Origin: an uncultured Phycisphaerales bacterium
GTDB taxonomy: Bacteria > Planctomycetota > Phycisphaerae > Tepidisphaerales > Tepidisphaeraceae
NCBI GenBank assembly: GCA_963758525.1
Contig: CAVWVQ010000001.1
Coordinates: 62,502-126,501, forward strand
Reading direction: 5' to 3'
Length of the DNA stretch: 64,000 nucleotides
The stretch's first letter is position 1; each line of letters starts with the position of its first letter. Below the pieces are notes generated by a model that saw nothing but the letters and a program-made list of their open reading frames with translations, did not search any database and was not told the origin of the DNA. Made by a program: the position numbers and the translations under genes. Shown one piece after another: positions 15,857 to 43,613 of the stretch.

Positions 15857-16957
15857 ATGCTTGATCCTATCCATGCACGCGCTCGCCAGCAGCGCCTCCT
15901 TGCCGCGATGCAGACGCGCCGGCTGGATGCCGCTGTCATCGGGTGGCGCTCCCATGTTTCCTATCTCACGACGCACATTCCGTTCTGGCTGCATGAGTCG
16001 GCGCTTGTACTGTTCGCGGATGGGCGTTCGCTGCTGATTGCGGCCAAGGACTCGGCAATTCGGTTTGCCACAAACGATGTGCTGTTCTATGACGCCAATT
16101 GGCTGGGGACGCAACGGGAGAATCAGGCGGGGCTTGTTGCAGAACAAGTGACCGCTCAGCTTCGCCGGCGCGGGGTGCGAATTGTGGGGATCGACGCGTC
16201 GGGCGTGAGTGCGGCGGTCGCGCAGCGGATGGATGGCACATGCGCCGCAATTGATGACGAACTGCTGCGGATGCGCCGGCGCAAAGACACCGACGAGCTT
16301 GCGCTGATGCGCAAGGCGATCTCCTGCTGCGGCTCGATGTATGCTCACGCCCGGCGGCTGATCGAGCCGGGGGTTCCGGAGCTGCGCGTTTTTGGCGAGC
16401 TTCACACGGTTGCAGTGGACATCGCGGGCGAGCCGCTCTCGGCATACCTGGGCAATGACTTTGCGAGCGGCGCGATGGGCGGGCCTCCGCGCAAGGCGCA
16501 CGCGGCGGAGGCGGGCCAGATCTATATTCTCGATCTGGGCCCGGCGTATCGCGGTTATTTCTCGGACACCGCGCGATGCGTCTGCGTCGATCGCAAGCCG
16601 ACGGATGCTCAACTTCGCGCCTGGGAAGTCATGCTTGGAGTGTTTCCGATCATCGAGCGGATGGCTCGTCCGGGAGTTCGTTGCCGCGATCTGTTCGATG
16701 CGGCCGAGGCTCATCTGCGCGAGGAGCATGGGTCGTCGATGGTGCATCACCTGGGTCACGGCGTGGGACTTTCGCCGCACGAATTTCCGCATCTGAATCC
16801 GCGTTATGATGACGTGCTGTCGGAAGGGGAAGTGTTCACGTGCGAGCCGGGGATTTACAATGACACGCTGAATGCCGGGCTGCGGCTGGAGAATATGTAT
16901 CTTGTGACGGCAGACGGCGTGGAGAACATGACGCCGTTTCCGATGGAACTGGCTTAA
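15857..16957 (+). CDS. M24-family metallopeptidase (Xaa-Pro aminopeptidase/creatinase-like)
   Basis: ...ELALMRKAISCC..., ...ILDLGPAYRGYFSDTARC..., ...HHLGHGVGLSPHE..., ...VFTCEPGIY... and ...LRLENMYLVT... form the pita-bread metal-ligand pattern. The upstream part of track ORF 15671.. looks non-coding, so ATG 15857 is preferred. Confidence 0.8.
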   Translation: MLDPIHARARQQRLLAAMQTRRLDAAVIGWRSHVSYLTTHIPFWLHESALVLFADGRSLLIAAKDSAIRFATNDVLFYDANWLGTQRENQAGLVAEQVTAQLRRRGVRIVGIDASGVSAAVAQRMDGTCAAIDDELLRMRRRKDTDELALMRKAISCCGSMYAHARRLIEPGVPELRVFGELHTVAVDIAGEPLSAYLGNDFASGAMGGPPRKAHAAEAGQIYILDLGPAYRGYFSDTARCVCVDRKPTDAQLRAWEVMLGVFPIIERMARPGVRCRDLFDAAEAHLREEHGSSMVHHLGHGVGLSPHEFPHLNPRYDDVLSEGEVFTCEPGIYNDTLNAGLRLENMYLVTADGVENMTPFPMELA

Positions 16958-18111
16958 TGACGGTCTCTCGCGACACATTTGAACGATATCGGCAGAAGGG
17001 GCTGGACGCCCGCCGCGCGGGGCAGTGGGATACTGCCCGCATCTATCTTCTGGAAGCCGCCCGCGCGATGGCCGCTTTGAGCAAAACTGCGCAGGGAGAA
17101 GACCTGCGCGAGGCGCGCCGGCAAACCGCGCAGCGGCTGCTCGATTTGGCGCACGACTGCGACACCGCGGCGAAGGAAGGACGCAGAACCTCCACCTTGC
17201 CGCGCCGTGTGCCTGGGAAAGCCGCGCCGGACGCGGTGGGGGAGTCGGACGGCGAGACTTCGGCCCAGCAATGGATCGTAAAGGAAAAACCGGCGCTGCG
17301 ATTCAGCGACGTGGCCGGGCTTGAGGATGTGAAGGAAGACATCCGGCTGAAGATGATCTACCCGTTCGAGCATCCGGAGCTGGCGGAGAAATTCGGAATC
17401 CGCGCGGGGGGCGGCGTGCTGTTATACGGGCCTCCGGGCACCGGCAAGACGCTGTTAGCCAAGGCCACCGCCGGCGAGATTGACGCCACGTTCTTCCGCA
17501 TTTCGCCGGCGGATGTGCTGAGCAAGTGGGTGGGTGAAGCCGAGCAGAACATCAAGAAGCTGTTCGACGCCGCGGCCGCCGAGCCGCGCAGCATCATCTT
17601 TATCGATGAGATCGAGGCGCTGGTTCCCGCGCGGCGGGATGAGGGTTCGAGCGTGATGCAGCGGGTGGTGCCGCAGATTCTGCAGGGGGTCGAAGGGTTC
17701 GACAAAAAGGCGAACCGCTCGCTGCTGCTGATGGGCGCGACTAATGTCCCCTGGCAACTCGACCCGGCGATGCTGCGACCGGGGCGATTTGATGAAAAGG
17801 TGTATATCCCGCTGCCGGACGTTACCGCCCGGCGGAAGATGCTCGACATGTATCTGTCGCACCGCCCGGTTGACGCGGCGGTGAATCTCGATGAACTGGC
17901 CCAGCAGCTTGAAGGTTTCAGCGGAGCAGACGTGAAGTACATCTGCGACCGCGCCGCGACGATCCCGTTTCTCCAGAGTGTCGCGACCGGCCGGGAAGGC
18001 GCCATTACACGCGAGATTCTTTCAGATGTTGTTAAGGACGCGACGCCGTCGGTGACGCCCGATATGCTCGGTCGGTTCCATCAATGGTCGCAGACCGCTG
18101 CGACCGAGTGA
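16957..18111 (+). CDS. AAA+ ATPase, Vps4/katanin-like (MIT-like N-domain plus single classic-clade AAA module)
   Basis: Walker A GPPGTGKT, Walker B IIFIDEIE, ...RPGRFDEKVYIPLPD..., and tail ...ATPSVTPDMLGRFHQWSQ.... The N-terminal 75 aa are helical (YRQKGLDARRAGQWDTARIYLLEAARAMAAL...). The ATG overlaps the peptidase stop (TAATG). Confidence 0.75.
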   Translation: MTVSRDTFERYRQKGLDARRAGQWDTARIYLLEAARAMAALSKTAQGEDLREARRQTAQRLLDLAHDCDTAAKEGRRTSTLPRRVPGKAAPDAVGESDGETSAQQWIVKEKPALRFSDVAGLEDVKEDIRLKMIYPFEHPELAEKFGIRAGGGVLLYGPPGTGKTLLAKATAGEIDATFFRISPADVLSKWVGEAEQNIKKLFDAAAAEPRSIIFIDEIEALVPARRDEGSSVMQRVVPQILQGVEGFDKKANRSLLLMGATNVPWQLDPAMLRPGRFDEKVYIPLPDVTARRKMLDMYLSHRPVDAAVNLDELAQQLEGFSGADVKYICDRAATIPFLQSVATGREGAITREILSDVVKDATPSVTPDMLGRFHQWSQTAATE

Positions 18112-24764: not shown

Positions 24765-26122
24765 ATGGCTGCAGGAGACGACACCATCGCGGGCTTGCGC
24801 GACGCATTGCGGGTTTCCCCCAACAATCTGCCGCTGCGCCAGCATCTGGCGGACACGCTCTGCGGCCTTGGGAGATATGACGAGGCGGAGGCGGAATACA
24901 AGGCCGCCATCAGCCTCTCGCCGGAGAATCCAAAGATCAAGCTTGGGCTGGCCCGCGCGTTTTACCTGCAGGGGAAAAACTCGGCCGCCCTGGTGATCGT
25001 GGAGGAAATGCTCAAAAGCCCTTCTCCGCCGGGCGCGGCGCTGGTGCTGCATGCAAGGCTGCTCGAGCGGACGGGGGAAATCGAGCGCGCGGTTCGGCAG
25101 TACAAGCGAGGCGTGAGCGACGATCCTTCGGCCGGCGATCCCGAATTTGCCGCGCGTCTGGGCATCCGAGCAAGCTCTGATGCCGGCGACGACGAGAGTG
25201 GCGAGGTCGTCGATGGCCGCGTCCGCGCCTCCCGCGAGCATGCGGCAACGCCGGGTGACGCCGAAGTGGAACGGCCGAAGATCAAGTTCAAGGACGTCGG
25301 CGGGATGGATGCGGTCAAGGACGACATCCGCATGAAGATCATCCACCCGATGAGTCATCCCGAACTCTACAAAGCCTACGGCAAAGCGATCGGCGGGGGG
25401 ATTTTGATGTACGGGCCGCCGGGCTGCGGCAAGACCCATCTGGCCCGTGCCACCGCGGGGGAGATCGAGGCCAATTTCATTTCCGTCGGCATCAGCGATG
25501 TTCTGGACATGTGGATCGGCTCGAGCGAGCGCAATCTCCATCAACTTTTTGCGCAGGCGCGCCGCAATCAACCGTGCGTGCTGTTCTTCGATGAGGTCGA
25601 CGCGCTGGCGGCGAGCCGTGCCGACATGCGCGCAGCGCCGGGCGGCACATGATCAACCAGTTTCTCGCCGAAATGGACGGCATCGGCGCATCCAACGAGG
25701 GCGTGCTGACTCTCGCGGCGACCAATGCTCCCTGGCACGTCGATGCCGCGTTTCGCAGGCCCGGGCGATTCGATCGCATCCTGTTTGTGCCGCCGCCCGA
25801 CGCGGCGGCGCGGGCGGCGATTCTGAGAATCCATCTGGCCGGCAAACCCGTCGATGCGATCGATCACGAGCATCTGGCGAAAAAGACCGAGGGGTTTTCC
25901 GGCGCCGACCTCAAGGCGGTGATCGACGCGGCCGTGGACGAAAAGCTTCGGCAGGCGATGAAGATCGGGCGGCCCGAGCCGATGACAACGCGCGATCTCG
26001 TCGCGGCGGCGGCGGGGATCAAGCCGTCGACGAAGGAATGGTTTGCGACGGCCAGAAATTATGCGCTCTATTCCAACCAGGGCGGGACGTACGACGACAT
26101 TCTCAAATATCTGAAGATGTGA
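24765..26122 (+). CDS. TPR-domain AAA+ ATPase (classic clade), frame-broken near 25625-25650
   Basis: ORFs 24765..25652 and 25649..26122 join across ...VDALAASRADMR then ...HMINQFLAEMDG.... N-terminal TPRs precede Walker A GPPGCGKT, Walker B VLFFDEVD and ...RRPGRFDRILFVPPPD.... Confidence 0.75.
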
Positions 26123-26129
26123 CTGCTTC

Positions 26130-27413
26130 ATGAGCAATGAGCGCGGCTCCATTTTGTATCAGACCGGCCGGCACGAGGCGGCGGAACAGGAATTCCGCGC
26201 CGCGTTGGCGCAGGACTCATCCAATGCGCTGTCGCACGCGATGCTCGGGCTCTGCCTCGCCCGGCGCGAGGCCTACGACGAGGCGACCGCCGAAGCGCAA
26301 GAGGCGATCCGGCTGCGTCCGGACTGGCATTTCGGATATTCAACCCTGGCTCACGTTCTGCTCGATCGCGAGCGCCTCAAGCCAGCCGCCGAGGCGATCG
26401 TCAAGGCCATCGAGATCGATTCGTTCAATGCCGGCTATCACGGATTGCTGGCGACGATTCGCCTGCAGCAGCGGCTGTGGCTGGCGGCGCTGGCGGCCGC
26501 CGACGCGGGGTTGCAGATCGATCCGGAAAACCAGTTCTGCCTGAACGCGCGGGCGCAGGCCCTGGTGAAGCTGGGTCGCAGCGACGAAGCGAGCCTGACG
26601 ATTGACGGCGCATTGCGGAAGGATCCCGAAAACGCCGTGACGCATGCCAACCAGGGGTGGGCGCTGCTGCATGCCGGCAAACACCGCGAAGCGATCGTTC
26701 ACTTTCGCGAGGCGTTGCGGCTCAAGCCGGAAATGGAGTGGGCCAAGGCCGGGCTGGTCGAGTCTCTCAAGGCGCGCAATATCATTTACCGGCTGATGCT
26801 CAAGTATTTCCTTTTCATGTCGCGCCTGCGCGGAAGAGCGCAATGGGCGATCATCGTCGGCGGATACGTCGGCTATCAGATCCTGGTGGCGGTCAAAGAC
26901 GCGCATCCGGAACTGAGAGTGCTGCTTCTGCCGCTGATCATCGCCTACGCGGTCTTTGCGATCATGACCTGGATTGCCCGGCCGTTGTTTGATCTGATGC
27001 TGCGCCTCCACCCCTACGGACGCTATGCACTCTCGCGCGATCAGACGATGGGCGCCAATTTGGTCGGCGGAACAATCGCTGTCGCTCTGGCGATCGCGAC
27101 CGCGGGGTTGGCGCGGCACGACAGCAATCTGCTCACCTCGGCGGTGCTTTGCGGAATGTTGCTGCTGCCGATCTCCACCATTTACTCCAGGCCCTCCGGC
27201 TGGCCGAGGCAGGCGATGACGCTCTACTGCGGCGCCCTCGCGTTCGTCGGCGTCGCGATAGCCGTCGCCGGTTGGCGCCTCCATCGCGCGGGGCTCCCCG
27301 CCAGCGATTTTCTGTTCAACATGCGCCAGCAACTGATCACGCTGTTTCTGTTCGGCGTTTTCCTCAACGGGTGGGTCGCCAACGCGCTGACGGCCGTTCG
27401 CGTGAAGAAGTAG
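26130..27413 (+). CDS. TPR-repeat protein with C-terminal polytopic membrane domain
   Basis: About 215 aa of TPR helices (...GRHEAAEQEFRAALAQD..., ...HREAIVHFREALRLKPE...) are followed by 5-6 hydrophobic segments. It starts 8 nt after the TPR-AAA gene. Confidence 0.65.
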   Translation: MSNERGSILYQTGRHEAAEQEFRAALAQDSSNALSHAMLGLCLARREAYDEATAEAQEAIRLRPDWHFGYSTLAHVLLDRERLKPAAEAIVKAIEIDSFNAGYHGLLATIRLQQRLWLAALAAADAGLQIDPENQFCLNARAQALVKLGRSDEASLTIDGALRKDPENAVTHANQGWALLHAGKHREAIVHFREALRLKPEMEWAKAGLVESLKARNIIYRLMLKYFLFMSRLRGRAQWAIIVGGYVGYQILVAVKDAHPELRVLLLPLIIAYAVFAIMTWIARPLFDLMLRLHPYGRYALSRDQTMGANLVGGTIAVALAIATAGLARHDSNLLTSAVLCGMLLLPISTIYSRPSGWPRQAMTLYCGALAFVGVAIAVAGWRLHRAGLPASDFLFNMRQQLITLFLFGVFLNGWVANALTAVRVKK

Positions 27414-33565: not shown

Positions 33566-34675
33566 TCAATGCTCCGGCGCCACTGCGCTCGCGAGGAACA
33601 GCGTGGTCAAAAATGTGAAAATGTATGCCTGCAGAAACGCGACGAAAATTTCCAGCAGTTGAATGCACAGATCGAGCAGCCCGATCGGCACGCCGACGAC
33701 AAAGTGAAGAATGCCCAGCGGTATCCCGACGATCAGGCTGATGAGCACCGCCAGCAACACGTGTCCGGCAACCATGTTCGCAAACAGTCGAATGCACAGG
33801 GCGAACGGCTTGATGATCGCGCCCAGCAATTCCAGCGCGAGGAGCAGAGCGAACATCGGGAGGTCCGCCGCCCACAGCAGTTTCGATTCGCCCTCTTTGG
33901 GGCGGAAGACATGCGGAGCGAAATTCCAGAGATAGATCGGAACGGCCAGCACGATCGCCAGCACGGGCGACATGATTGTGCCGGATGCCTCCTCGGCATG
34001 CGACTTGGGCGGATGACCGCCGAATTCATCGTCGTGATAATGCGCCGTCGGATTCATTACCGCGCGGAAATCGCCGGGAAGGTCCGCGGCGAGACCTTCG
34101 CCGCGGGCATGCTCCAAATCCTGGGAGGCCTCGTGCGGCGGATGGCCGTCGGAGGTGTGTTCCTCGTGATGGCCGTGTTCATGCCCGTAGGTGCCGTTCA
34201 TCAACTTCTGGGCAATGACATCGATTCCGTGGGCGTGAATGAAGAAAAACGCGCAGATCGCCAGCGCCGCGGTTGTCGGCACGGTGCCCGTCGCGGCGCC
34301 GCCGAGATGTTCGATTTTCCCGCCCGTAATCAGTTCGAAAAACGTGGCAAACGGAATGCATCCCAGGACATTGCAGAACAGAATGAAGAAGAAGACGGTC
34401 CAGAGAAACGGTACGAAGCGGTCGGTGTTCTCCTTGAGCGCCGGGCGAAAAACCTCCAGCCGGAGAAATTCCAGGATCGATTCGAAGAGATTCTTGGCGC
34501 CGGTCGGCGGTCCGCTGTCCGGTTTGGGAAAGAGCTTCGGAAAAATCCAGGCCATCAGCACCGCGGCGACCAATGACATCACCATCGGATTGTTGACGTG
34601 CAGCGGCCCGATGCTGAAGAGGGTGTGCGGAAGGACTTCGTCGAGAGGATCGGATACGCCAAGGAGCATTTGCAT
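33566..34675 (-). CDS. atpB: F0 ATP synthase subunit a, with a long His-rich insertion
   Basis: Conserved ...ALCIRLFANMVAGHVLL... (essential Arg) and ...LEIFVAFLQAYIFTFL.... At 369 aa it is longer than usual because of a His/acidic segment at about aa 157-233. Confidence 0.85.
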   Translation of the reverse strand: MQMLLGVSDPLDEVLPHTLFSIGPLHVNNPMVMSLVAAVLMAWIFPKLFPKPDSGPPTGAKNLFESILEFLRLEVFRPALKENTDRFVPFLWTVFFFILFCNVLGCIPFATFFELITGGKIEHLGGAATGTVPTTAALAICAFFFIHAHGIDVIAQKLMNGTYGHEHGHHEEHTSDGHPPHEASQDLEHARGEGLAADLPGDFRAVMNPTAHYHDDEFGGHPPKSHAEEASGTIMSPVLAIVLAVPIYLWNFAPHVFRPKEGESKLLWAADLPMFALLLALELLGAIIKPFALCIRLFANMVAGHVLLAVLISLIVGIPLGILHFVVGVPIGLLDLCIQLLEIFVAFLQAYIFTFLTTLFLASAVAPEH

Positions 34676-34690
34676 GATTGCTGATGCCTT

Positions 34691-35086
34691 CTAATGCGAA
34701 AGTGATTCCATCGTCCCGGCCGGCGTCCGCAGCCTGCTCACAAACACGCCGCTTGTTGCAAACAGTGTTATCCAATACAGGGCCAGCATCCAGTAGACAA
34801 ACGCGTCGGCCGGCCGCAGCAGCAGAATAATCGCGCACGCTCCGGCAAGTGAAACCGCCAGGTGCAGAATCGAACCCAGAAATGCGGCCTGAAATCTCGA
34901 CGCATGACCAGGGTGGGAAAGACGAAGGATCGGAGTAATTCCAAGCATCGCCGCCAGCGTGGCAAGGGTCGCGGCCATGAGCAATTCGTGCGAATGAGGG
35001 TTCACCCCGACCGCGCGGCAGACCCCCGCTCCGGTCGCCGCAGCAACAATCACCACCAACGGACTGAGCAGCATCGAACGGAGCAC
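34691..35086 (-). CDS. Small 4-TM protein in the AtpI position of the atp operon
   Basis: 131 aa with four hydrophobic segments, immediately upstream of atpB. Assigned by position and topology only. Confidence 0.5.
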   Translation of the reverse strand: MLRSMLLSPLVVIVAAATGAGVCRAVGVNPHSHELLMAATLATLAAMLGITPILRLSHPGHASRFQAAFLGSILHLAVSLAGACAIILLLRPADAFVYWMLALYWITLFATSGVFVSRLRTPAGTMESLSH

Positions 35087-35092
35087 CGCGAT

Positions 35093-35302
35093 TCAATCCT
35101 TATTCATCCGGCTCACATCCCTGATGAGCAGGTACATGCCTGCCGCACATCCAATGAGCAGACCGATGAGCGTTCCCCAGGGACTTGATCCATGATGTCG
35201 ATCCCACCAGGCGCCGACCACGGCTCCCAGTCCGGTTCCCACGGCAACCTCAAAGCCGTAGGACAACCCTTTACCCCATCCGCCCTGGTCATCGCCAGCC
35301 AT
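35093..35302 (-). CDS. AtpZ/ATPase_gene1-like small membrane protein
   Basis: 69 aa: ...GLSYGFEVAVGTGLGAVVGAWWDRHHGSSPWGTLIGLLIGCAAGMYLLI.... This is a two-TM pattern typical of AtpZ, and it is the first gene of the atp block. Confidence 0.6.
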   Translation of the reverse strand: MAGDDQGGWGKGLSYGFEVAVGTGLGAVVGAWWDRHHGSSPWGTLIGLLIGCAAGMYLLIRDVSRMNKD

Positions 35303-35748: not shown

Positions 35749-37227
35749 ATGGGTCTTCAGGCGAGACTGCGCCATGCGATGGGGGAGCGGGTGCTGGAAA
35801 TTCCATTGAGCGTCGCGGACCGGCCTTTTGTCATCGGTCGCGGACCGGATGCAAATTTGATCGTCCCTTCCGTCTCGGTGGCGCAACGGCAATGTGTGCT
35901 CTTCGTGAGCGACGGACAATGGGTGATTCAGGAATGGACGCCGGGAGGCACGCGAATCAACGGCCACGCGCCTGATGGACCCACGCCGCTTTGCGTGGGC
36001 GATGTGCTGACGATCGGCGCGGAGGGAACCGCCGCCACATTGGAGATCGACCCCGGCGGCGCTGAGTCCGGCCGTGCCGGGAGCCCGGCGTTGGATGGGG
36101 TCCGCTCGCCGCTACTGCGGCCCGCGCCGTCGCACGGGGAACGCGCTCAACCCGCTCCCGCGCTGGCGGCACGACCGCGGCCCGTGCCGCCGAGGACGAT
36201 CGCAGCTTCCTTTCAGCAGCTGGGGTCTGCTCCGCCCCCGCCGAAACAAATCCGCAAGGCGCCGGCAGCGGCAGGGGACCCGGACGGGGAGGTTGTTGAT
36301 TGGGTTCCAGCGGTTGATTCCGTGGAGGGGATCACGCTCGGGCACTCGCGGAAGAAGTCATCGCTGATACCGCTGTTGATCTGCATGGTGCTGGCGGCGG
36401 GGATCATCGGTGGCACCGCATGGTTTGTCGTGGAGCAGCTTCAGCATCCGCAGGTCGTGGTGATCGGTGCGCTAACGCCTCCGGGAGCCGGACCGAAGAA
36501 GCCGGCGACCGCGAGCGAAGGGGCCGAGACGAGTTCTTCCGATCCGACCGCCGATGCGCCCGGCGCAGGTTCGCCCAGCGCAGATGCGCCCGGCGCCGGT
36601 CCGCCCAGCGCGGATGCGCCCGGCGCAGGTTCGCCCAGCGCAGATGCGCCCAGCGCCGGTCCGCCCAGCGCAGATGCGCCAGACAATGGTGGTTCGCCCG
36701 CCCCGTCCGCTTCGGACGATCCGGACGCCCAATCGGGCGATCTGGATTGGACCGATGTGATGGTCGCGCGCGACCTGCCGGACCCCGCCCCCGCGATCGT
36801 TCGATACGAAGACTATCGCCGGCGCAATCCCGGCAAACATGACAAAACGCTTCGCCAATTCGAGGCCGAGGCGTTCGACAGGTTGTGGTGGCGGCGGATC
36901 GCGCAGTTGTGTCATCGCCGCGTGCGGCTGGCCGTGGAAATCGAAGCCAAGAAGAAGGCGATCGCCGAAGAAAGTGATGCCTCCTTCAAAGCGCGACTTC
37001 AGTTGGAATTGGCCTCGCTGCAGCAGGATGAAAAAGCATCGAGCGACGCCTTGCACAACGACATGGGCTTCGATGCCGCCGACCCGCCCGACCTCGACGA
37101 CGAAAAAGCGATTGCCGCCGCGCGGGCAAATCGAAACAAGCAGAAATACGCAGAGTGGTCAAAGGACATCGGAACGTATGTTCGCAATCACGCCGGGGCG
37201 ACGCCGTGGGGGGATGAGGATTTGTGA
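35749..37227 (+). CDS. FHA-domain membrane protein with Pro/Ala tandem repeats and a coiled-coil C-terminal domain
   Basis: From ATG 35749: ...RPFVIGRGPDANLIVPSVSVAQRQCVLFVSDGQWVIQEWTPGGTRINGH...GDVLTIG... (FHA). TM segment LIPLLICMVLAAGIIGGTAWFVV. DAPGAG(S/P)PSA repeats. Charged helical C-terminus. Confidence 0.8.
   Translation: MGLQARLRHAMGERVLEIPLSVADRPFVIGRGPDANLIVPSVSVAQRQCVLFVSDGQWVIQEWTPGGTRINGHAPDGPTPLCVGDVLTIGAEGTAATLEIDPGGAESGRAGSPALDGVRSPLLRPAPSHGERAQPAPALAARPRPVPPRTIAASFQQLGSAPPPPKQIRKAPAAAGDPDGEVVDWVPAVDSVEGITLGHSRKKSSLIPLLICMVLAAGIIGGTAWFVVEQLQHPQVVVIGALTPPGAGPKKPATASEGAETSSSDPTADAPGAGSPSADAPGAGPPSADAPGAGSPSADAPSAGPPSADAPDNGGSPAPSASDDPDAQSGDLDWTDVMVARDLPDPAPAIVRYEDYRRRNPGKHDKTLRQFEAEAFDRLWWRRIAQLCHRRVRLAVEIEAKKKAIAEESDASFKARLQLELASLQQDEKASSDALHNDMGFDAADPPDLDDEKAIAAARANRNKQKYAEWSKDIGTYVRNHAGATPWGDEDL
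36553..36684 (+). repeat. 30-bp tandem repeat (about 4.4 copies, 60-bp higher-order unit) inside the FHA gene
   Basis: GATGCGCCCGGCGCAGGTTCGCCCAGCGCA alternates with GATGCGCCCGGCGCCGGTCCGCCCAGCGCG. Units 1 and 3 are identical. The repeat encodes (DAPGAGSPSA/DAPGAGPPSA)n. Confidence 0.9.
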
Positions 37228-37250
37228 AAATCACCAATCACAAGCCCGAC

Positions 37251-38003
37251 CTACCACGTCAGCGCATCCAGATGCCGCTGAATGTCCCCCGCGCTTCCAA
37301 AGCGCTCGAGGATCAGTGAATCTTTTTGTCCGCGAATGATGTCCTTCACCACCTTCGGCTGGCGGCTGTATCGCTTTCGCCCTCCGACGATCGTGTAAAA
37401 CACTTCGATCAGATTCAGAACGTCCTTGTGGATCTTGCTGCGCGTCGGCCGGCCGAGATCGAAGAAGTCGAGCAGCTTTACTTCAAAGCCGATGCCGCGC
37501 CGGCGGATCATGATGTTGTCGTCGTGAATGTCGCCGTGATATTCTCCCACCGCGTGAATCGGCGCGATTCCCTTGGCCAGCACGTAAAGCACGTGGAGCG
37601 CCTCGAAAGTGGTCAGCCGGTGCTCGCGCTGGGCAACGAGAAACTCGCTGAGCTTCTGGCCCTCAACCAGTTCGCTGATCACCACCATGACTTTCCGCCG
37701 ACGGAAGTAGGCGATCTCCTGATGGTGATACTGCATGAGAATGGGACAGTGCCGCAGCGCGTCGAGCTTGCGTGCGTATGCGATGGCGGCTTTGCCCATC
37801 GGGTCGCGATGGGGGTAATAGAACTTGGCCGCGCGGCGGATGCCCGTCGCCCGCTCGACGATCGAGTAGACTTCCCCTTCCCATCCGCTTCCCAGCAACC
37901 CCTCGATCAGATATTTGCCTGCGACGCTCCGCCCCGGCGGGAAGTCGAATCGTTTCACTTTGCCGGGCCTGTACATACGCTCATATTGGGAGCCGCCGGG
38001 CAA
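37251..38003 (-). CDS. Small atypical protein kinase (RIO/Bud32/Kdo-kinase-like catalytic loop)
   Basis: 250 aa. ...LLGSGWEGEVYSI...RRAAKFYY..., catalytic HGDIHDDNIMI and ...KLLDFFDLG.... There are no extra domains. Convergent with the FHA gene. Confidence 0.65.
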   Translation of the reverse strand: MPGGSQYERMYRPGKVKRFDFPPGRSVAGKYLIEGLLGSGWEGEVYSIVERATGIRRAAKFYYPHRDPMGKAAIAYARKLDALRHCPILMQYHHQEIAYFRRRKVMVVISELVEGQKLSEFLVAQREHRLTTFEALHVLYVLAKGIAPIHAVGEYHGDIHDDNIMIRRRGIGFEVKLLDFFDLGRPTRSKIHKDVLNLIEVFYTIVGGRKRYSRQPKVVKDIIRGQKDSLILERFGSAGDIQRHLDALTW

Positions 38004-38166
38004 TTTTCAATCGGGGCCGGCCGGCAGTGGATTTTGATGAAAAATCGCCGGTCGTAGACAGAAAGGCCTTCCCAGAGTCCCGCGACCGAGGAACACTGTG
38101 CACCTTTGCACACCGTTCCAGCAACGTCACGTTCATCGCGAGAAACCTCTGCGCACTGAAACATTC

Positions 38167-38302
38167 CCCGTGGCACGGGCGTCCCGCCCGTGTTAGCGAC
38201 GCCGAAAATAGAGAAGCGTTGGATCAACCCGCGGAATCTGATTTGTCTTACTTCTCATGCAACCAGCATGGGCGGGACGCGCGGGACGCACATGCCACGG
38301 GG
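38167..38302. repeat. Family E: imperfect inverted pair in the divergent promoter region
   Basis: CCCCGTGGCACGGGCGTCCCGCCCGTG (38167..38193) is matched by the reverse complement of 38267..38302, CCCCGTGGCATGTGCGTCCCGCGCGTCCCGCCCATG. Confidence 0.7.
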
Positions 38303-38374
38303 ACGCCCTATTGAAACGCGATCCGCATTTATAGCCCAACGCTTTGCGGCCGAATTCGCTACAATTCTGCGCCG

Positions 38375-38764
38375 ATGGATTTTCTCAAAAGCATCGGCGG
38401 GAAAATCGTCACCGGGCTGGTGGCGCTGGCAGTGATCGCGGCAGGGGTCTCCTGGTTTGAGATGGACCCGGGCACGCGGCATGCCATCGCCTCTGACGCT
38501 GGCCGTATTCTTGCGTGGTCCGGAGTTGTCATCCTCCTGCCGTGGGTGACGTTCTTCCTCATCGGCGCCGTGGCGCGGCAGGAGAGCAACCTCGCGGGAG
38601 CCTTGCTGGTGACGGGATATACGATCGTCGAGGCGGTCGTGCTGGCGTGGTTGTTTGGGTGGTCGCTCCGCGGGGCGATGCCGTGGGTCTTCTTTTCGGC
38701 GGCAGTTTTGTTGGCCGCGGCGTATAATCTTTTCACGTGCGACTGGATCGCCGAGAAATTGTGA
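38375..38764 (+). CDS. Small 4-TM membrane protein (first gene of the kinase/zinc-ribbon/Snf7-like operon)
   Basis: 129 aa with four hydrophobic segments. Its stop lies 4 nt before the kinase ATG. I recognise no family. Confidence 0.55.
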   Translation: MDFLKSIGGKIVTGLVALAVIAAGVSWFEMDPGTRHAIASDAGRILAWSGVVILLPWVTFFLIGAVARQESNLAGALLVTGYTIVEAVVLAWLFGWSLRGAMPWVFFSAAVLLAAAYNLFTCDWIAEKL

Positions 38765-38768
38765 AGCC

Positions 38769-39824
38769 ATGATTACTCCAAATCAACGCGTCGGCGAATA
38801 CGTTCTGCAGGAAAGGATTAGCGCCGGCACTTTTGGCGAGGTTTGGAAGGCGCATCACCACGTCTGGAGCGACCAGATCGTGGCGATGAAAATCCCCACC
38901 GATCCGCAATACATCCGAAACCTCCAGCGCGAAGGCGTCACCATTCACGGGCTGGTTCATCCCAACATCGTGCGCACGTTGGCGTTCGATCCGTTTGCCG
39001 AGGTCGCGTATCTGGCGATGGAATACATTCCCGGCACCAGCCTTCGACCGGTGATTCAGAGCCGCAAGCTCAAACCGGACGACGCGGTAGCCATCATGCG
39101 GCAGGTGCTTGCGGGGCTCTCGTTTGCCCATGAGCGCGGGGTCGTGCATCGCGATATCAAGCCGGAGAATATCCTCGTCCACGAGCGCGTCGCCCAGGAA
39201 GGATATTCGTCGCCGGGGTTGATCAAGGTGACGGATTTCGGATTGGGCCAGACGTCGCAGACGATGGCGGCGGGGTCGATCGCGTACTCGGCGTCCCTGC
39301 AGACGCCGCAGGCGCAGGAAATCGCCGGCACGCTCGACTACATGGCGCCCGAGCAACGGAGCGTCCAGGAGAAAATTGACGGACGCACCGATCTCTACGC
39401 CTGCGGCGTGGTCCTTTACGAGATGCTCACCGGCGAACGACCAGCCGGCACAGAACTGCCCAGCGAGCTGAATCACGCCGTTTCGCGGCAACTCGACGAA
39501 GCGTTCCGTCGCTCCTACTCCCGGCTGGATAAGCGATTTGCTTCCGCGGCGGAGTTTGCCAAGGCGCTGGGCGGCCCGCCGCCCGTCCCGCAGACGGCGC
39601 CGCGGAGCGTGCCGTTGAATATGATGTTGCTGGAAAAGCGGGCGTGCCCGCAATGTCGTCAGTCGGTGGAAGCGGCGGACCAGTTCTGCATGCACTGCGG
39701 CGTGCAGCTGGTCGAAAACGTTCGCCGCTGTCCGCAGTGCGGCGCGTATCCCGATCTGACGGACCAGTATTGTATTTTTTGCGGACAGACGCTCAGCCGC
39801 ACTCCGATGCCGGCCGCGAGGTAA
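38769..39824 (+). CDS. Ser/Thr protein kinase (Hanks type) with C-terminal double zinc ribbon
   Basis: From ATG 38769: ...ISAGTFGEVWKA...VAMKI..., HRDIKPENIL, TDFGLG, GTLDYMAPEQ. The C-terminus reads CPQCRQ...CMHCG...CPQCGA...CIFCG. Confidence 0.85.
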   Translation: MITPNQRVGEYVLQERISAGTFGEVWKAHHHVWSDQIVAMKIPTDPQYIRNLQREGVTIHGLVHPNIVRTLAFDPFAEVAYLAMEYIPGTSLRPVIQSRKLKPDDAVAIMRQVLAGLSFAHERGVVHRDIKPENILVHERVAQEGYSSPGLIKVTDFGLGQTSQTMAAGSIAYSASLQTPQAQEIAGTLDYMAPEQRSVQEKIDGRTDLYACGVVLYEMLTGERPAGTELPSELNHAVSRQLDEAFRRSYSRLDKRFASAAEFAKALGGPPPVPQTAPRSVPLNMMLLEKRACPQCRQSVEAADQFCMHCGVQLVENVRRCPQCGAYPDLTDQYCIFCGQTLSRTPMPAAR

Positions 39825-39830
39825 AGAATC

Positions 39831-40112
39831 ATGGTGCATGTAGCCGTTGGCGCGGTGCTGTTTGCGGCCTTGATGGTCATCACCGCGGTGCTCTTCACGA
39901 TCTGGCTGGTGGCCCTGGTGGCGCGCTGGATGTGGCGCCTGGTGATGGGCGGCACTTCGCGTTCGTCATATTCTTCCAAGGGTGTTCTCGACACACGGAT
40001 GTGCAGCCGCGACCGCTGCCGGGCGGTAAATCCATCGCAGGCACAATTCTGTCGTCGCTGCGGCACCAGCTTGAACGACGCCGCCGCCGTCGGACGGCGC
40101 GTCGCCGTCTGA
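39831..40112 (+). CDS. Single-pass membrane protein with C-terminal zinc ribbon
   Basis: 93 aa. TM region VAVGAVLFAALMVITAVLFTIWLVALVA, then CSRDRC...FCRRCG. It starts 7 nt after the kinase stop. Confidence 0.6.
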   Translation: MVHVAVGAVLFAALMVITAVLFTIWLVALVARWMWRLVMGGTSRSSYSSKGVLDTRMCSRDRCRAVNPSQAQFCRRCGTSLNDAAAVGRRVAV

Positions 40113-40130
40113 TCTTCACGGAGACGATGC

Positions 40131-41062
40131 GTGAGTATGACCGTGCCCACGTCAACTGCCGCCCCGGTCGATCCCCCGGCGATGGATCCTCAATCGCAGA
40201 TGGTGCGAGCCGCCGGTTCAACCGGGTGGGGCGTGATCACTTCGGCGATCGTCGGCGCGGTTTCCTTTGGCATACTTCCCGCATTCCGCTGGTCTGGACA
40301 ATTCGCCGACATCGCCGAACGCGAAGCATCGCGCTTTCGCGGTCCGGTCCGCTGGGCGATCGCAATCGATGGATCGCAGCGGACCGCGCAGGAACTGAAC
40401 GAGCGCGTTCTCGCGTCGCTCCGCGCTGGTACCTTACGGTTTTCAGCTACGCGCTGGTCGTATACGTTGCCGTTACTTTCTCGCTGGAATTTCTCAGGCA
40501 ATCGTTTTCGATCGATCGGCTGATGCTCTATACCTATTCCTACGCGAGGCCTGAATCCGATTTCATGTGGAACGTTTTTGACGCGGACCGATGGGCTCGA
40601 TCGGAACACGCTCGCGCAGCGCATATGCTCTGGTGCGTCGCGCTGTCCGTTGCGTATGGAGCCCATTGGCTGCAGGTCCGTTGGCATCGAAAGGCCGTTC
40701 GGCGGTTTGTTCGCACCTTCAATCGCGTCGTTCAACCGCGCGGCATCCTCCCCGTGCAAATGCGCGAGCCGGGCGCCTTTCATCCGATGCTGGTCGTGGG
40801 AGCCATTCTGTTTGGTTCGTTTGGCGCCTGGTGGGGAATCCCCATGCTGCTGGCCGCTTCGGCTCAGAGTCGATATACCTTGATAACGCGCCGGTCGCTT
40901 GCAGTGCAGTTTGCCGACCGCATGAGCAAAAGAGCGGTGCAGCGCACGGTCGAAAGGCGCTGCCCAACGCAGGGCTGCCGGGCGCTGCTTCCGCCGCCCG
41001 CGAAATTTTGTCCGCAGTGCGGAGCGCGGGTGCCAGAGCCGATGATCGATCAGGTGGGTTAG
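40131..41062 (+). CDS. Polytopic membrane protein with C-terminal zinc ribbon, frame-broken near 40410-40430
   Basis: ORF 40131..40523 (...ELNERVLASLRA) joins the frame-2 reading (WYLTVFSYALVVYVAVTF...), which is the tail of track ORF 39644..41062. It ends ...RRCPTQGCRALLPPPAKFCPQCGARV.... Confidence 0.55.
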
Positions 41063-41065
41063 TCC

Positions 41066-41206
41066 ATGCCGCAAATGTATCGAATGCTCGCGGTGATTGG
41101 GTGGACGTGGTGCATCGGGTTCTTCCTTTTCCTTGCATTCAAGCTGTGCCGTTTGCCGAGGCGGACGGATGCAGCAAATTCGGATGAGTCTTCGCGAGTT
41201 GCCTGA
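41066..41206 (+). CDS. 46-aa single-TM micro-protein
   Basis: MPQMYRMLAVIGWTWCIGFFLFLAFKLCRLPRRTDAANSDESSRVA. The ATG lies 4 nt after the previous stop, and its TGA overlaps the next ATG (TGATG at 41204..41208). It is below the ORF-track length cut-off. Confidence 0.45.
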   Translation: MPQMYRMLAVIGWTWCIGFFLFLAFKLCRLPRRTDAANSDESSRVA

Positions 41207-42669
41207 TGAGCAGTACCGATCCCCTGATTCACCGCGAGCTTGAAGAGCAGATGATTCGGCACGTCGAACGCCTGCTCACCGATGATCGTCTTCGCATCGA
41301 TACCGCGATCGGCCGCCGTCCGGTCATGACGTTTATCAACAGCCCGGTGAAATCGGATCATGCGGTCGAGCTCAAGCGCCTGATGAGCGAGATGAATGTG
41401 CCGGACCGCGAGTTGCAGGCGAAGATGCCGGTCGGTCTTTCGCTCGAGGTCGCGCTGACGCGCAGGAAGCTCTTCATTTTTACGCAGACGGTGGGGCGCT
41501 TGCGCGTGTTGTGCGTCCCGCCCATGCGCGCCCTGATTGGCGGTGAAGTCCCCAGGCCGATGACGACCGGCGAGTTGCAAAAGGTGCTCGCTTCACAACC
41601 GCCGTCGACTCCCGGAGCGCCGACGACGATATTAATCGTCTCGACCAGCGGCTACACGCTTGAGGCACACGAAGCGGCCGAGCGCCGCACCGATCGCACC
41701 GTTATACTGGCTGAGCCGAACGACGCCGGCGGGTGGACCATTACCGGTCCGGCCGAAACCAAGGCGTTGACTGATCTGTTCGATCCGGAGGTGGAGGACG
41801 AGAAGCGCAGCCGCGTTCGCGAGCAGATTGAAGAGGAGAAGATGAATCTCTCCGGCGCCGGCATCGCCACCGACAAGCTCGCGGCGCGAATGCAGCTTCC
41901 GGTGCAGTTTGTCGAGGGCGAGCTGAAGGCCTACGCCAAGGCCAACCCCGGCCTGGTCGCCCGGCGACTGGATGGCCGGGTTGTTCTCTTTCGCGAGGGG
42001 TCGGGTCCGCCGGCACTCGCCGCTGGAGGTTCATCCATGCCGTTGATCGATCGCGTCAAAACACTCTTTGCCCGCAAGGGCGAGGTCGAGAAAAAAATCG
42101 CGTTTCTCTCCGAGCGCCGCACCGCTCTCTCGCAGCAGCGCGAACGTTCCTACGAAGAGATGGCGGGTATCGAGCAGCAGGAAGCGCAGCTCAAACGCCA
42201 GTTCGGCGAGGCGACCGGTACGATCACCAAGAAGCGGGTCACGAGCCAGCTTCTGCAGATGCGAAAGGATCTGGAGCGACGCCAGCAGCTTCTCTCGGTG
42301 CTGAATCAGCAGGTGGATGTCGTAAGCACGCATCTGCACAATCTGGAGCTCGTTCAGCAGGGCCAGACCGCGAAGCTGCCGGATGCGGATGAGATGACCG
42401 CCGACGCGGTCAAAGCCGAGGAGATGCTCGCGGAACTTGAAGCCAACAGTGAATTATCCGCGTCAATCGGACAGACCGGCGGAATCGCGGGGCTCAACGC
42501 CGAGGAACAGGCGCTTTACGAAGAACTCGAGCGCGAAATGAATCCCGCGAAATCCATCCCCGCGTCCTCCCCCGGGCGAAAGATCGCATCGAAGCAGGAT
42601 GAGCCGGCTCGTCCCGAGCCGACTTCCGCCCCCTCGCGGCAGCGTCGCGGCGAAGCCGAGCCCGGATAA
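41206..42669 (+). CDS. Multidomain protein: unknown N-terminal globular region plus C-terminal Snf7/ESCRT-III-like coiled coil
   Basis: 487 aa. From about aa 275: MPLIDRVKTLFARKGEVEKKIAFLSERRTALSQQRERSYEEM...LLQMRKDLERRQQLLSVLNQQVDVVSTHLHNLELVQQ...MTADAVKAEEMLAELEA...EEQALYEELEREM. This region is a paralogue of the next gene. Confidence 0.5.
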   Translation: MSSTDPLIHRELEEQMIRHVERLLTDDRLRIDTAIGRRPVMTFINSPVKSDHAVELKRLMSEMNVPDRELQAKMPVGLSLEVALTRRKLFIFTQTVGRLRVLCVPPMRALIGGEVPRPMTTGELQKVLASQPPSTPGAPTTILIVSTSGYTLEAHEAAERRTDRTVILAEPNDAGGWTITGPAETKALTDLFDPEVEDEKRSRVREQIEEEKMNLSGAGIATDKLAARMQLPVQFVEGELKAYAKANPGLVARRLDGRVVLFREGSGPPALAAGGSSMPLIDRVKTLFARKGEVEKKIAFLSERRTALSQQRERSYEEMAGIEQQEAQLKRQFGEATGTITKKRVTSQLLQMRKDLERRQQLLSVLNQQVDVVSTHLHNLELVQQGQTAKLPDADEMTADAVKAEEMLAELEANSELSASIGQTGGIAGLNAEEQALYEELEREMNPAKSIPASSPGRKIASKQDEPARPEPTSAPSRQRRGEAEPG

Positions 42670-42672
42670 ACC

Positions 42673-43286
42673 ATGGCACTGATCGACAAGTTGTTCAATC
42701 GCAAGAAGACGCTCAGCGAGCTGGACCGACAGGAGCTGCGCAAGGAAGAAATCCTGCTCGGCAAGCAGCGCGATCGTCTGTTCAAGAAGATCGAGAAGAT
42801 CAGCCAGGACAAGCAGCGCATTTTCAAGCAGGGATCCGAGCAGAAATCGCCCGAGCTGCGCAAGCGCTTGCGCAGGACTTTGAGTTGCAGACCCAGGAGC
42901 AGCTCATGGCCGCCCGTGAGCTGAATCTGCGCAGCAAAGAGCTGATGACCGTCAGCCGGCTGCGCATGGTCCGCGAAAACAAAGACGGCGGCCGGGCGCT
43001 GGGCCGGCTGAATGTCACGGACAAGGACGTTGCGCGGATCAGCCAGTGGATCGAAGACGACTCGGTCACGCAGGACATGTATCAGGAACGGCTCGACACA
43101 CTGCTGGAGTTGGGCGCTCAATCCGATAAAGACGCCGTCGCCCAGGCCGGGCTCACCGGCGCCGGCCAGGAGCTGATGCAGCTTTGGGACCAGCTCGATC
43201 GGGGGTCGATCAAGCAGGAAGAGGCGTTTGACGAAGCGGATAAAGCGGTGCGCCGACGAAATGCATCGATGGAAGGGGAGAGGTGA
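42673..43286 (+). CDS. Snf7/ESCRT-III-like coiled-coil protein (about 204 aa), frame-broken near 42865-42872
   Basis: ORFs 42673..42924 and 42885..43286 join as ...SPELRKRL then AQDFELQTQEQLMAAREL.... MALIDKLFNRKKTLSELDRQELRKEEILLGKQRDRLFKKIEK... resembles the Snf7/CHMP4 helix-1 region as I remember it. Confidence 0.5.
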
Positions 43287-43295
43287 CAAGCAAAT

Positions 43296-43544
43296 CCGAA
43301 TGACGAAACCAGAAACCAGAATCAAGCCCGAATGACGAAACCCGAAACCAGAATCAAGCCCGAATGCTCGAATGACGAAGCCCGAAACGAAGTTAGACCG
43401 CCGATTTCCTGGAACAATCGCGTCGCGGGGAGGACGATGACATCGCGGAGCGTAGCGTTCCCTGCCTTTGTTTCGTCATTCGGTCATTCGTCATTTGGGT
43501 TTGATTGATTCTGGTTTCTGGTTTCGTCATTCGGGTTTCCGTCG
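43296..43544. repeat. Family G: large imperfect inverted repeat with internal 32-bp tandem units
   Basis: The left arm (43296..43392) holds CCGAATGACGAAACC(A/C)GAAACCAGAATCAAGC twice (43296..43327 and 43328..43359) plus a degenerate unit. The right arm (43467..43544) is its inverse (...GATTCTGGTTTCTGGTTTCGTCATTCGG...). Confidence 0.85.
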
Positions 43545-43613
43545 TTCCCCGCGCCTCCCGTTCTGCGCCTCCCGTTCTTGCAGTACTGCGGTCCCGGTCC
43601 TAAACTTGCGAAT

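Follow-up and report, generated by a model that had tools for sequence, protein, structure and literature searches.

What is the run of kinase, zinc-ribbon and helical-protein genes in this stretch of planctomycete DNA, and are its last two products relatives of ESCRT-III? The stretch (called the window here) is 64,000 nucleotides long and comes from an uncultured Phycisphaerales bacterium of the family Tepidisphaeraceae (assembly GCA_963758525.1, contig CAVWVQ010000001.1, positions 62,502 to 126,501). It has a G+C content of about 61%, and the named homologues of its proteins are from Tepidisphaeraceae and Humisphaera (class Phycisphaerae, Planctomycetota). A first-pass annotation, made from the sequence alone, had proposed that positions 35749..43286 encode an undescribed system made of an FHA reader, two kinases, three zinc-ribbon proteins, a transmembrane (TM) micro-protein and two Snf7-like proteins. 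Our answer is that block 37251..43286 is probably the Tepidisphaerales version, regulated by kinases, of a bacterial ESCRT-III/Vps4-like membrane-remodelling system. It is the gene context that points from the helical proteins to ESCRT-III; when they were searched directly against Pfam, PDB and Foldseek, they were not identified as such. We number the genes g2 to g9 as listed here, and L001 is the locus of the closest relative.

37251..37976, minus strand: g2, small stand-alone kinase (Pfam Pkinase, conserved motifs, adjoins the operon in about 33 loci)
38375..38764, plus strand: g3 (4-TM), 129-aa polytopic membrane protein with about four TM segments, first operon gene (open reading frame, synteny)
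38769..39824, plus strand: g4 (kinase-DZR), Hanks-type Ser/Thr kinase that lacks a TM segment and has a double zinc ribbon at its C-terminus (Pfam, motifs)
39831..40112, plus strand: g5 (TM-ZnR), 93-aa protein with an N-terminal TM segment and one four-Cys zinc ribbon, predicted to be cytoplasmic (conserved Cys, synteny)
40131..41062, plus strand: g6 (4TM-ZnR), protein of about 310 aa with four TM segments and a C-terminal zinc ribbon, split near 40401 (tblastn, synteny)
41066..41206, plus strand: g7, 46-aa single-TM micro-protein (shared motif in the same gap)
41206..42669, plus strand: g8, 487-aa fusion protein with its C-part in the family we call E3A (AlphaFold2, hhalign)
42673..43286, plus strand: g9, 204-aa ESCRT-III-like candidate of the family we call E3B, split after 42864 (alignment with L001, hhalign)
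43271..43559, no strand: long imperfect inverted repeat (repeat search, RNA fold)

The open reading frames lie where the first-pass annotation had put them, and the operon is as tight as it described, with measured junctions of 4, 6, 18, 3, -1 and 3 nt. Two of the frames can't be single genes as they stand: 40131..41062 and 42673..43286 are 932 and 614 nt long, which are not multiples of 3. The small kinase does converge with the FHA gene, but the description left out that the same kinase is divergent from the operon. Its start is probably the conserved ATG at 37976, which gives a protein of 241 aa as in L001.

A gene cassette in Tepidisphaerales

A scan of one genome per species found a relative of g9 in 114 species-level genomes. 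Those with a taxon label are Tepidisphaerales or unclassified Phycisphaerae, with the exception of one contig binned as Acidobacteria. We fetched 80 of the 114 loci, and about 50 of these have enough upstream sequence for gene order. The order 4-TM protein, kinase-DZR, TM-ZnR, 4TM-ZnR, micro-ORF (a short open reading frame), 487-aa protein and 204-aa protein is found in about 50 Tepidisphaerales genomes, so the gene set is a conserved cassette. It is carried by the cultured Fontivita pretiosa B-254 (L024). The small kinase lies divergently upstream of the operon in about 33 of the roughly 50 loci, mostly about 100–400 nt from the 4-TM gene. The cassette is inherited as a unit across Tepidisphaerales.

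At the protein level g9 is 98% identical between the window and L001, and the AtpZ-like proteins of the same two genomes are 57% identical. There are 1763 homologues of g9, and the best 120 of the 1763 are all at least 78% identical. It may be speculated from these values that g9 is conserved in the manner of an essential core protein. The cassette adjoins ATP synthase genes at the same place in the window and in L001 and L002 (the loci checked). In the window, the gene for ATP synthase subunit a and small atp-associated genes are directly upstream of the FHA gene (33566-35302, minus strand), and L001 has the same arrangement. Some relatives have insertions that leave the cassette unbroken: a PhdYeFM/PIN pair that separates the small kinase from the operon (L001 3404-4484), an NTP_transf_2/HEPN pair between the Snf7 gene described below and an ATPase gene (L169 9324-10053), and a UPF0236 transposase-like gene between g9 and Snf7 (L003 11726-12742).

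Pfam and conserved motifs agree with the first-pass annotation on the two kinases, the zinc ribbons and the TM micro-protein, with the ribbon matches of g5 and g6 below cutoff. Both g2 and g4 qualify as Hanks-type kinases (PF00069), having a profile score over the cutoff together with catalytic motifs. For g2, the Pfam Pkinase match is 52.3 bits, above the cutoff, and the motifs GSGWEGEVY (G-loop), AAK, HGDIHDDN and DFF are conserved in 33 sequences; this gene is among the best conserved of the cassette, with 69-93% identity in the tabulated loci. The larger kinase g4 matches Pkinase with 143 bits and DZR with 33.9 bits, and its HRDxKPEN, DFG and APE motifs are conserved in 51 sequences along with both Cys pairs.

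The membrane proteins are recognizable by position and by motif. g3 is in the same place in about 50 loci at 42-82% identity, with the conserved motifs PW, sN.Ag and YNl..CDWiAEk. g5 has weak matches to DZR and Zn_Ribbon_1 that are under the Pfam cutoffs, and its motif C....C...NP..A.fCrrCG is conserved in 44 sequences. The C-terminal zinc-ribbon match of g6 is also under the Pfam cutoff, and its Cys pairs are conserved. By tblastn, the intact 306-aa g6 orthologue of L001 aligns in two segments, which lie in frames +3 and +2, and g6 is syntenic in most loci at 23-46% identity. In the gap between g6 and g8, 42 of 49 loci have a small TM open reading frame with the motif Y.IL..GW.W...(F/Y)L..R.RR, and we regard the 46-aa g7 peptide as a real gene.

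Related operons with Vps4-type ATPases

An exhaustive profile search gave 183 clusters (at 50% identity) related to g9. The distant relatives in other Planctomycetota are encoded in a conserved operon of 10-12 genes (L084-L166), which has this order:

Genes 1 to 3: 302-aa protein; protein of about 608 aa (weak SPFH match in one member); 279-411-aa protein
Genes 4 to 6: E3A helical protein of about 220 aa; E3B of about 212 aa; E3B' of about 201 aa
Genes 7 to 9: AAA ATPase of about 405 aa; 199-aa protein; second AAA ATPase of about 380 aa
Genes 10 and 11: 232-aa protein; TPR protein

In both ATPases Pfam finds Vps4_C with scores (30.7 and 27.7 bits) over the cutoff of 21.3. The 199-aa protein aligns to almost the entire Pfam Snf7 model at E = 4e-6, with 26.9 bits against a cutoff of 27.3. 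It also served as the positive control for hhalign, where it matched five eukaryotic ESCRT-III sequences with P = 4e-7. The Snf7 label of the first-pass annotation was well placed in this respect: in other Planctomycetota, the families of the two helical proteins sit beside Pfam-detectable Snf7 proteins and Vps4_C AAA ATPases.

The correspondence to the window proteins is clear at the family level. With hhalign, the g9 family matches E3B and E3B' with P = 3e-28 and 2e-29. The C-part of g8 matches the separate E3A protein of about 220 aa (P = 5e-10), and its N-part matches a separate 279-aa winged-helix (WH) protein (P = 2e-10). We therefore read g8 as a fusion of two neighbouring genes of the Vps4-type operon. 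E3A and E3B match each other at the family level with P = 2e-7, and the two helical proteins are thus the paralogues they had been taken for, although distant ones.

Two further features of these families were seen. The WH adaptors at L084 8025-9050 and L086 7972-9207 have an N-terminal finger of eight Cys with a weak FYVE match (E = 0.006). Set against the ribbons on the Tepidisphaerales kinase and membrane proteins, this FYVE-like finger may be a domain-swap clue to the partner of the ribbons. P0391 (409 aa) and P0392 (420 aa) have about double the usual length and about double the bits, and each appears to join two E3B-type units in tandem.

The TEPIDISPHAERALES cassette usually extends past g9 to a gene of about 201 aa that is typically about 200 nt downstream. 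This gene is 39% identical to planctomycete Snf7 (E = 1e-43). Of the 78 Tepidisphaerales loci that have room for it, 61 have a Snf7 gene 3' of g9. In the window the same site is taken by the inverted repeat. The first-pass annotation had placed this large repeat at the operon end (43296..43544), and we found its arms at 43271-43325 and 43505-43559, so that it overlaps the end of g9 by 16 nt. It is made of CGAATGACGAAAC, which is present in five copies against 0.22 expected and is nowhere else in the window, and its RNA fold has -133 kcal/mol (z = -8.3). We believe it is probably a terminator or a repeat element; a scar of a lost Snf7 gene is a possible alternative.

A Vps4/CdvC-type ATPase is encoded together with the module in L084, L085, L086, L167 and L169. 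L169 has the most complete cassette that we saw, with g3-like, kinase-DZR (49% identical), g5-like, g8-like and g9-like (44%) genes. It also has Snf7 (56%), a toxin-antitoxin insertion, an ATPase that is 50.5% identical to the window ATPase at 16957, and a homologue of the 608-aa protein. In L168 the genes present are kinase-DZR, g6-like, g8-like, g9-like and Snf7. L167 is far more distant and encodes E3B, a Vps4-like ATPase and Snf7, with two large Hanks kinases on their flanks, of which one has a weak DZR match. The coupling of kinase and zinc ribbon recurs in L167, L168 and L169 and is therefore no accident of one lineage. Adjoining the E3B, Vps4 and Snf7 genes of L167 (14818-16404) is a gene for a 528-aa protein that appears to start with an SPFH-like region, to continue as a long coiled coil and to have a zinc ribbon at its C-terminus.

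Three window genes outside the cassette had been linked to it by the first-pass annotation, two AAA ATPases as possible partners and the FHA protein as a member:

16957..18111, plus strand: 384-aa classical AAA ATPase, single domain with a helical N-terminal region (Pfam, 51% identity to L085:13096)
24765..26040, plus strand: TPR-AAA ATPase gene, split near 25640 (Pfam TPR and truncated AAA; tblastn)
35749..37227, plus strand: FHA-TM protein with a low-complexity repeat (Pfam FHA; a neighbour, not a conserved member)

The suggestion is plausible for the ATPase at 16957..18111. It has Pfam matches to AAA (133.8 bits) and AAA_lid_3, and it is 51% identical over the full length to L085:13096, the second ATPase of the operon, which carries Vps4_C. 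Its N-terminal region was judged MIT-like by eye only. We consider it a candidate Vps4/CdvC-like partner of the cassette. With phmmer, searching PDB for the AAA ATPases told us nothing useful, since the scores are dominated by two-domain Cdc48/p97 chains. For the gene at 24765..26040, the tblastn match continues in another frame at 25643-26032, and its AAA part shares up to 47% identity with Vps4-like-2. The TPR protein 3' of it (26130..27413) resembles the TPR protein that closes the L085-type operon (28% over 196 aa, E = 3e-9). This TPR-AAA and TPR pair, 24765-27413, may be a second relative of the system.

The FHA protein has a sound domain match (Pfam PF00498, 32.9 bits with a cutoff of 20.7). 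Its gene is beside the kinase in just 3-4 of about 33 kinase loci, L001, L002 and L014 plus a weak match in L008, and it is not syntenic. We excluded it from the cassette on these grounds, and its role as the reader of the system did not stand, which counts against that part of the original proposal. The gene caller missed or split the FHA orthologue in L001. At about 36500-36720 the window gene has several copies of a tandem low-complexity repeat, DAPGAGSPSA / DAPGAGPPSA, which sits between the TM segment and the C-terminal helical region of the protein.

Direct tests and rival explanations

The architectures that AlphaFold2 (AF2) predicts for both helical proteins are compatible with the ESCRT-III fold. 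The g9 model (pLDDT 68) has helices at 19-56, 60-105, 117-128, 134-159, 163-176 and 182-197; the first two make a hairpin of 38 and 46 residues, and the four after them are shorter. In g8 (pLDDT 76), an N-terminal alpha/beta domain (about 1-195) and a winged helix (about 222-263) are followed by a hairpin region at about 280-445. The helices of this region are at 280-335, 339-384, 394-425 and 432-445, so that a hairpin of 56 and 46 residues is joined by two further helices. The 677 homologues of g8 are all annotated as hypothetical. By eye its N-terminal domain looked Mrr/PD-(D/E)xK-like; no tool supported this and we dropped the claim.

The sequence of g9 has features expected of the superfamily. 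Its N-terminal helix reads MALIDKLFNRKK, which we take to resemble the N-terminal helices of CHMP proteins, Vipp1 and PspA. F51, G54 and A67 are the sole invariant or near-invariant columns over 48 diverse relatives, and hhalign aligns them with the K-G ... A-K consensus at the hairpin tip of ESCRT-III. Thus g9 has both an amphipathic N-terminus and the K-x-G ... A-(K/R) tip, which we treat as a signature and not as proof.

The family-level comparison with ESCRT-III used a target of five eukaryotic sequences that were entered by hand and then compared with PDB. Their scores to the PDB chains of CHMP3, Snf7, CHMP1B and CHMP2A are 196-259 bits, and because of this we took them as validated. With hhalign, g9/E3B matches this target with P = 1.8e-3 over 120 in-register columns. 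Merged profiles give 5.2e-5, and a larger merge gives 4.8e-4. All told, this is a weak similarity that keeps the register, with P ranging from 5e-5 to 3e-3. The reversed-sequence controls gave P of at least 0.02. Run in this set-up, the Snf7 family of Tepidisphaerales gives 1.6e-3, and the accepted link between ESCRT-III and PspA gives only 0.045-0.08.

Several results weigh against this assignment and against the reading of the whole block. The first-pass annotation had named a match to an ESCRT-III-superfamily profile as the deciding test, and neither helical protein has one in Pfam, PDB or Foldseek. Pfam Snf7 (PF03357) reaches E = 0.5 and 10.5 bits on the window g9 fragment, finds none of 39 intact g9 orthologues and no match in g8, and matches 3 of 48 distant g9 relatives, with a best E of 2.5e-4. 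The family profiles had chance matches and no ESCRT-III or PspA chain among all PDB sequences, and the HMM-consensus (hidden Markov model) sequences found nothing when scanned against Pfam. Foldseek of the AF2 models against PDB was non-significant (E of at least 0.14), with CHMP3, Snf7, CdvB and Vipp1 at E 0.3-6 mixed with SMC, F-BAR and YscO coiled coils. Taken by itself, E3A has no hhalign signal to ESCRT-III. The P-values for g9/E3B shift with the alignment that is used, and coiled-coil-like sequences are prone to spurious similarity. On the side of the genome, four family HMMs found no Snf7 gene in the 64-kb window, and the nearest relatives (L001, L004-L013) have none downstream of g9. 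The candidate ATPase is about 20 kb upstream of the cassette. Its best NCBIfam match is CdvC with 229 bits (cutoff 650), next to CDC48 with 226 bits, and no Vps4_C match is listed for it at E of 0.01 or less, where the orthologue has 27.7 bits (cutoff 21.3). Two genes of the cassette are frame-shifted in the window.

The PDB profile search is too insensitive to refute the kinship because the positive control, the planctomycete Snf7 family, nearly fails too, with CHMP2A at E = 0.35 as its sole match. Overall, we find it quite likely that g9 belongs to the ESCRT-III superfamily. We put the C-part of g8 slightly lower because its link to ESCRT-III runs through E3B alone. We also considered a PspA-type identity for the two proteins. 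Pfam PspA_IM30 (PF04012) has no match in g8, g9, their orthologues or the distant relatives, and hhalign against E. coli PspA and Synechocystis Vipp1 (a thin two-sequence profile) gave P of at least 0.15 for E3B and at least 0.23 for E3A. We rejected the PspA-type identity on the hhalign result.

A rather unlikely alternative is that g8 and g9 are lineage-specific coiled-coil scaffolds unrelated to ESCRT-III, and that the cassette is a Ser/Thr-kinase signalling module with membrane sensors. The Snf7/Vps4-like neighbourhood would then be a looser link, for example to adaptors or substrates instead of filament subunits. The lack of a significant direct profile or structure match for g8 and g9 favours this, as do the missing profile-profile signal of E3A and the coiled-coil hairpins that rank alongside ESCRT-III in Foldseek. 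The E3B' family, where 0 of 48 members match Pfam Snf7, adds to this. However, the size of about 200 aa, the hairpin geometry, the amphipathic N-terminal motif and the hairpin-tip G/A all fit ESCRT-III, and so do the acidic C-half and the conserved terminal helix. The in-register hhalign signals surpass the reversed controls, and 3-4 paralogues have a WH protein on one side and Vps4-like ATPases on the other, which is the arrangement of archaeal ESCRT loci. A kinase-based anti-phage or abortive-infection system of the PD-T4-6, Stk2 or MADS kind, with the helical proteins as membrane-disrupting effectors, is very improbable. Both kinases match the PADLOC PD-T4-6 and mad6 models and the ATPase at 16957 matches IetA, but these matches reflect generic kinase and AAA similarity, and g3, g5, g6, g8, g9 and Snf7 match no defence model in PADLOC-DB 2.0. 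In favour of such a system, L001 and L169 have toxin-antitoxin pairs within or close to the cassette. Against it, the cassette keeps its place beside the ATP synthase genes in the loci checked, unlike mobile defence islands, and it is conserved vertically, at the level of core genes. We ruled the defence reading out on the PADLOC result and this vertical conservation.

It is also improbable, in our judgement, that the module is decaying in this genome, with real frameshifts in g6 and g9 and the loss of Snf7 marking pseudogenisation. Two of eight cassette genes are indeed frame-shifted, and the Snf7 gene is absent from the window and the nearest relatives. Alignment with L001, where the orthologues are intact (306 aa and 204 aa), puts a -1 frame change near 40401 in g6 and another right after 42864 in g9, where the window has AAG and L001 has AAGG. 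But a third -1 shift, near 25640 in the unrelated TPR-AAA gene, suggests systematic deletion errors in the assembly. In g9 the window and L001 differ by 54 synonymous-only codons and 4 amino-acid changes, and 3' of the frameshift there are 44 synonymous and 3 non-synonymous differences. Intact g9 copies that are 99% identical are present in other samples, and relatives without an adjacent Snf7 gene retain intact g6, g8 and g9. Because of the third shift, the synonymous-dominated codons and the intact copies, we believe the frameshifts are most likely assembly indels (deletions). All three -1 changes fit single-base deletions, and therefore further genes of the window are possibly affected by assembly indels.

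Known systems, working model and cell division

The closest known systems are the archaeal ESCRT-III/Vps4 machineries (CdvABC of Crenarchaeota and the ESCRT-II/III/Vps4 set of Asgard archaea). In the operons of the relatives, too, several ESCRT-III-type paralogues, each about 200 aa long, are grouped with a winged-helix protein and an MIT-like Vps4_C ATPase. Sulfolobus CdvB has a winged-helix domain at its C-terminus, and g8 also joins a winged-helix domain to an ESCRT-III-like core. The differences are that the planctomycete host is bacterial, that E3A and E3B are too divergent for Pfam, and that the cassette adds Hanks kinases, the small kinase and zinc-ribbon membrane proteins. The planctomycete system is without CdvA and without ubiquitin-like components, and in the window the ATPase is unlinked and Snf7 is missing. 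Archaeal 'Meth_adaptin' ESCRT loci encode an SPFH-like, coiled-coil, zinc-ribbon protein (Makarova et al., PMC10936438), and the 528-aa protein of L167 has the same apparent combination of domains.

PspA, Vipp1 (IM30) and LiaH are similar to the cassette in the predicted helical hairpin and the N-terminal amphipathic helix. The cassette differs in having no PspA_IM30 match and no pspBC, pspF or liaI partners, and its relatives sit with Vps4-type ATPases. In eukaryotes ESCRT-III is under the control of kinases, as with Aurora B and CHMP4C or ULK3 and IST1, where Ser/Thr kinases gate the dynamics of the polymer. The logic would be alike here; homology to the cassette is limited to the kinase fold.

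A 2025 review states that a Vps4-like ATPase appears to be absent from bacteria (PMC7619361). In the available part of a phage shock protein (PSP) survey, Snf7-clade proteins occur in bacteria occasionally and rarely, Vps4-like AAA ATPases have been transferred to bacteria with a TPR/6TM protein, with snf7 displaced there, histidine kinases are the sole kinases mentioned, and the terms 'FHA' and 'Planctomyc' do not occur (PMC11237479). At its end the L085-type operon has a Vps4-like ATPase and a TPR protein, like the loci in that part of the survey, but the planctomycete operons keep Snf7 and three ESCRT-III-like paralogues, with Hanks kinases in several lineages. The first-pass annotation knew of no earlier description of a kinase-linked Snf7-type set in bacteria. 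We found none in the literature that we searched, the coverage of which is incomplete, and the same search gave no description of a planctomycetal Vps4 operon or of its kinase-linked form. The cassette is probably a new, kinase-wired variant of the ESCRT-III/Vps4-type system in bacteria.

Under the ESCRT-III/Vps4-like reading of the cassette, the parts could work together in the following way. g3, g5, g6 and g7 would sit together in the cytoplasmic membrane as a platform or sensor. In g5 and g6 the zinc ribbons come after positively charged stretches that follow the last TM segments, and they should therefore face the cytoplasm. The soluble kinase g4 would dock at this platform through its own double zinc ribbon, which is of the same type as those of g5 and g6 and maybe has the same docking partner. 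Together with the small kinase g2, it would phosphorylate adaptor or filament proteins and so gate assembly. g8 would be an adaptor (alpha/beta and winged-helix domains) joined to a filament subunit, with its winged-helix part in the position that ESCRT-II-like winged-helix proteins hold in archaeal loci. It would use short N-terminal amphipathic helices to nucleate, on the membrane, a co-polymer with g9, and Snf7 would join this co-polymer where it is present. The MIT-like AAA ATPase would remodel or disassemble the polymer by way of the conserved C-terminal helices and so recycle it. Such a system may repair the membrane, cut off vesicles or make a division-related cut. Apart from gene content and homology, the steps of this mechanism (phosphorylation, polymerisation and membrane binding) are what we infer from sequence.

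A bolder extension, to which we give a low probability, is that the cassette and the unlinked Vps4-like ATPase are a Cdv-like scission machinery that carries out or completes cell division in planctomycetes that divide by binary fission without FtsZ, in which case ESCRT-III/Vps4 would not be restricted to archaea and eukaryotes. The timing and placement of this machinery would be set by the Hanks kinases and the zinc-ribbon membrane proteins. Phycisphaerae have a binary-fission-like division without FtsZ, and the protein that drives it is an open question (Rivas-Marin et al., PMC6952346). The strong conservation of g9, of the kind seen in essential core proteins, also speaks for this reading. 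A Cdv-like role, though speculative, is therefore worth testing, and F. pretiosa B-254 is a cultured carrier for experiments.

The relatives of this cassette are bacterial operons with Vps4_C ATPases, Snf7, a winged-helix protein and three ESCRT-III-like paralogues, and the window would hold a derived form coupled to Hanks kinases. If this is true, the ESCRT-III/Vps4 machinery extends to bacteria, which would bear on whether the system is ancient or was transferred from archaea. It would also give a genetically simple case of kinase-gated control of ESCRT-III, and a concrete candidate for membrane scission in planctomycetes that lack FtsZ.

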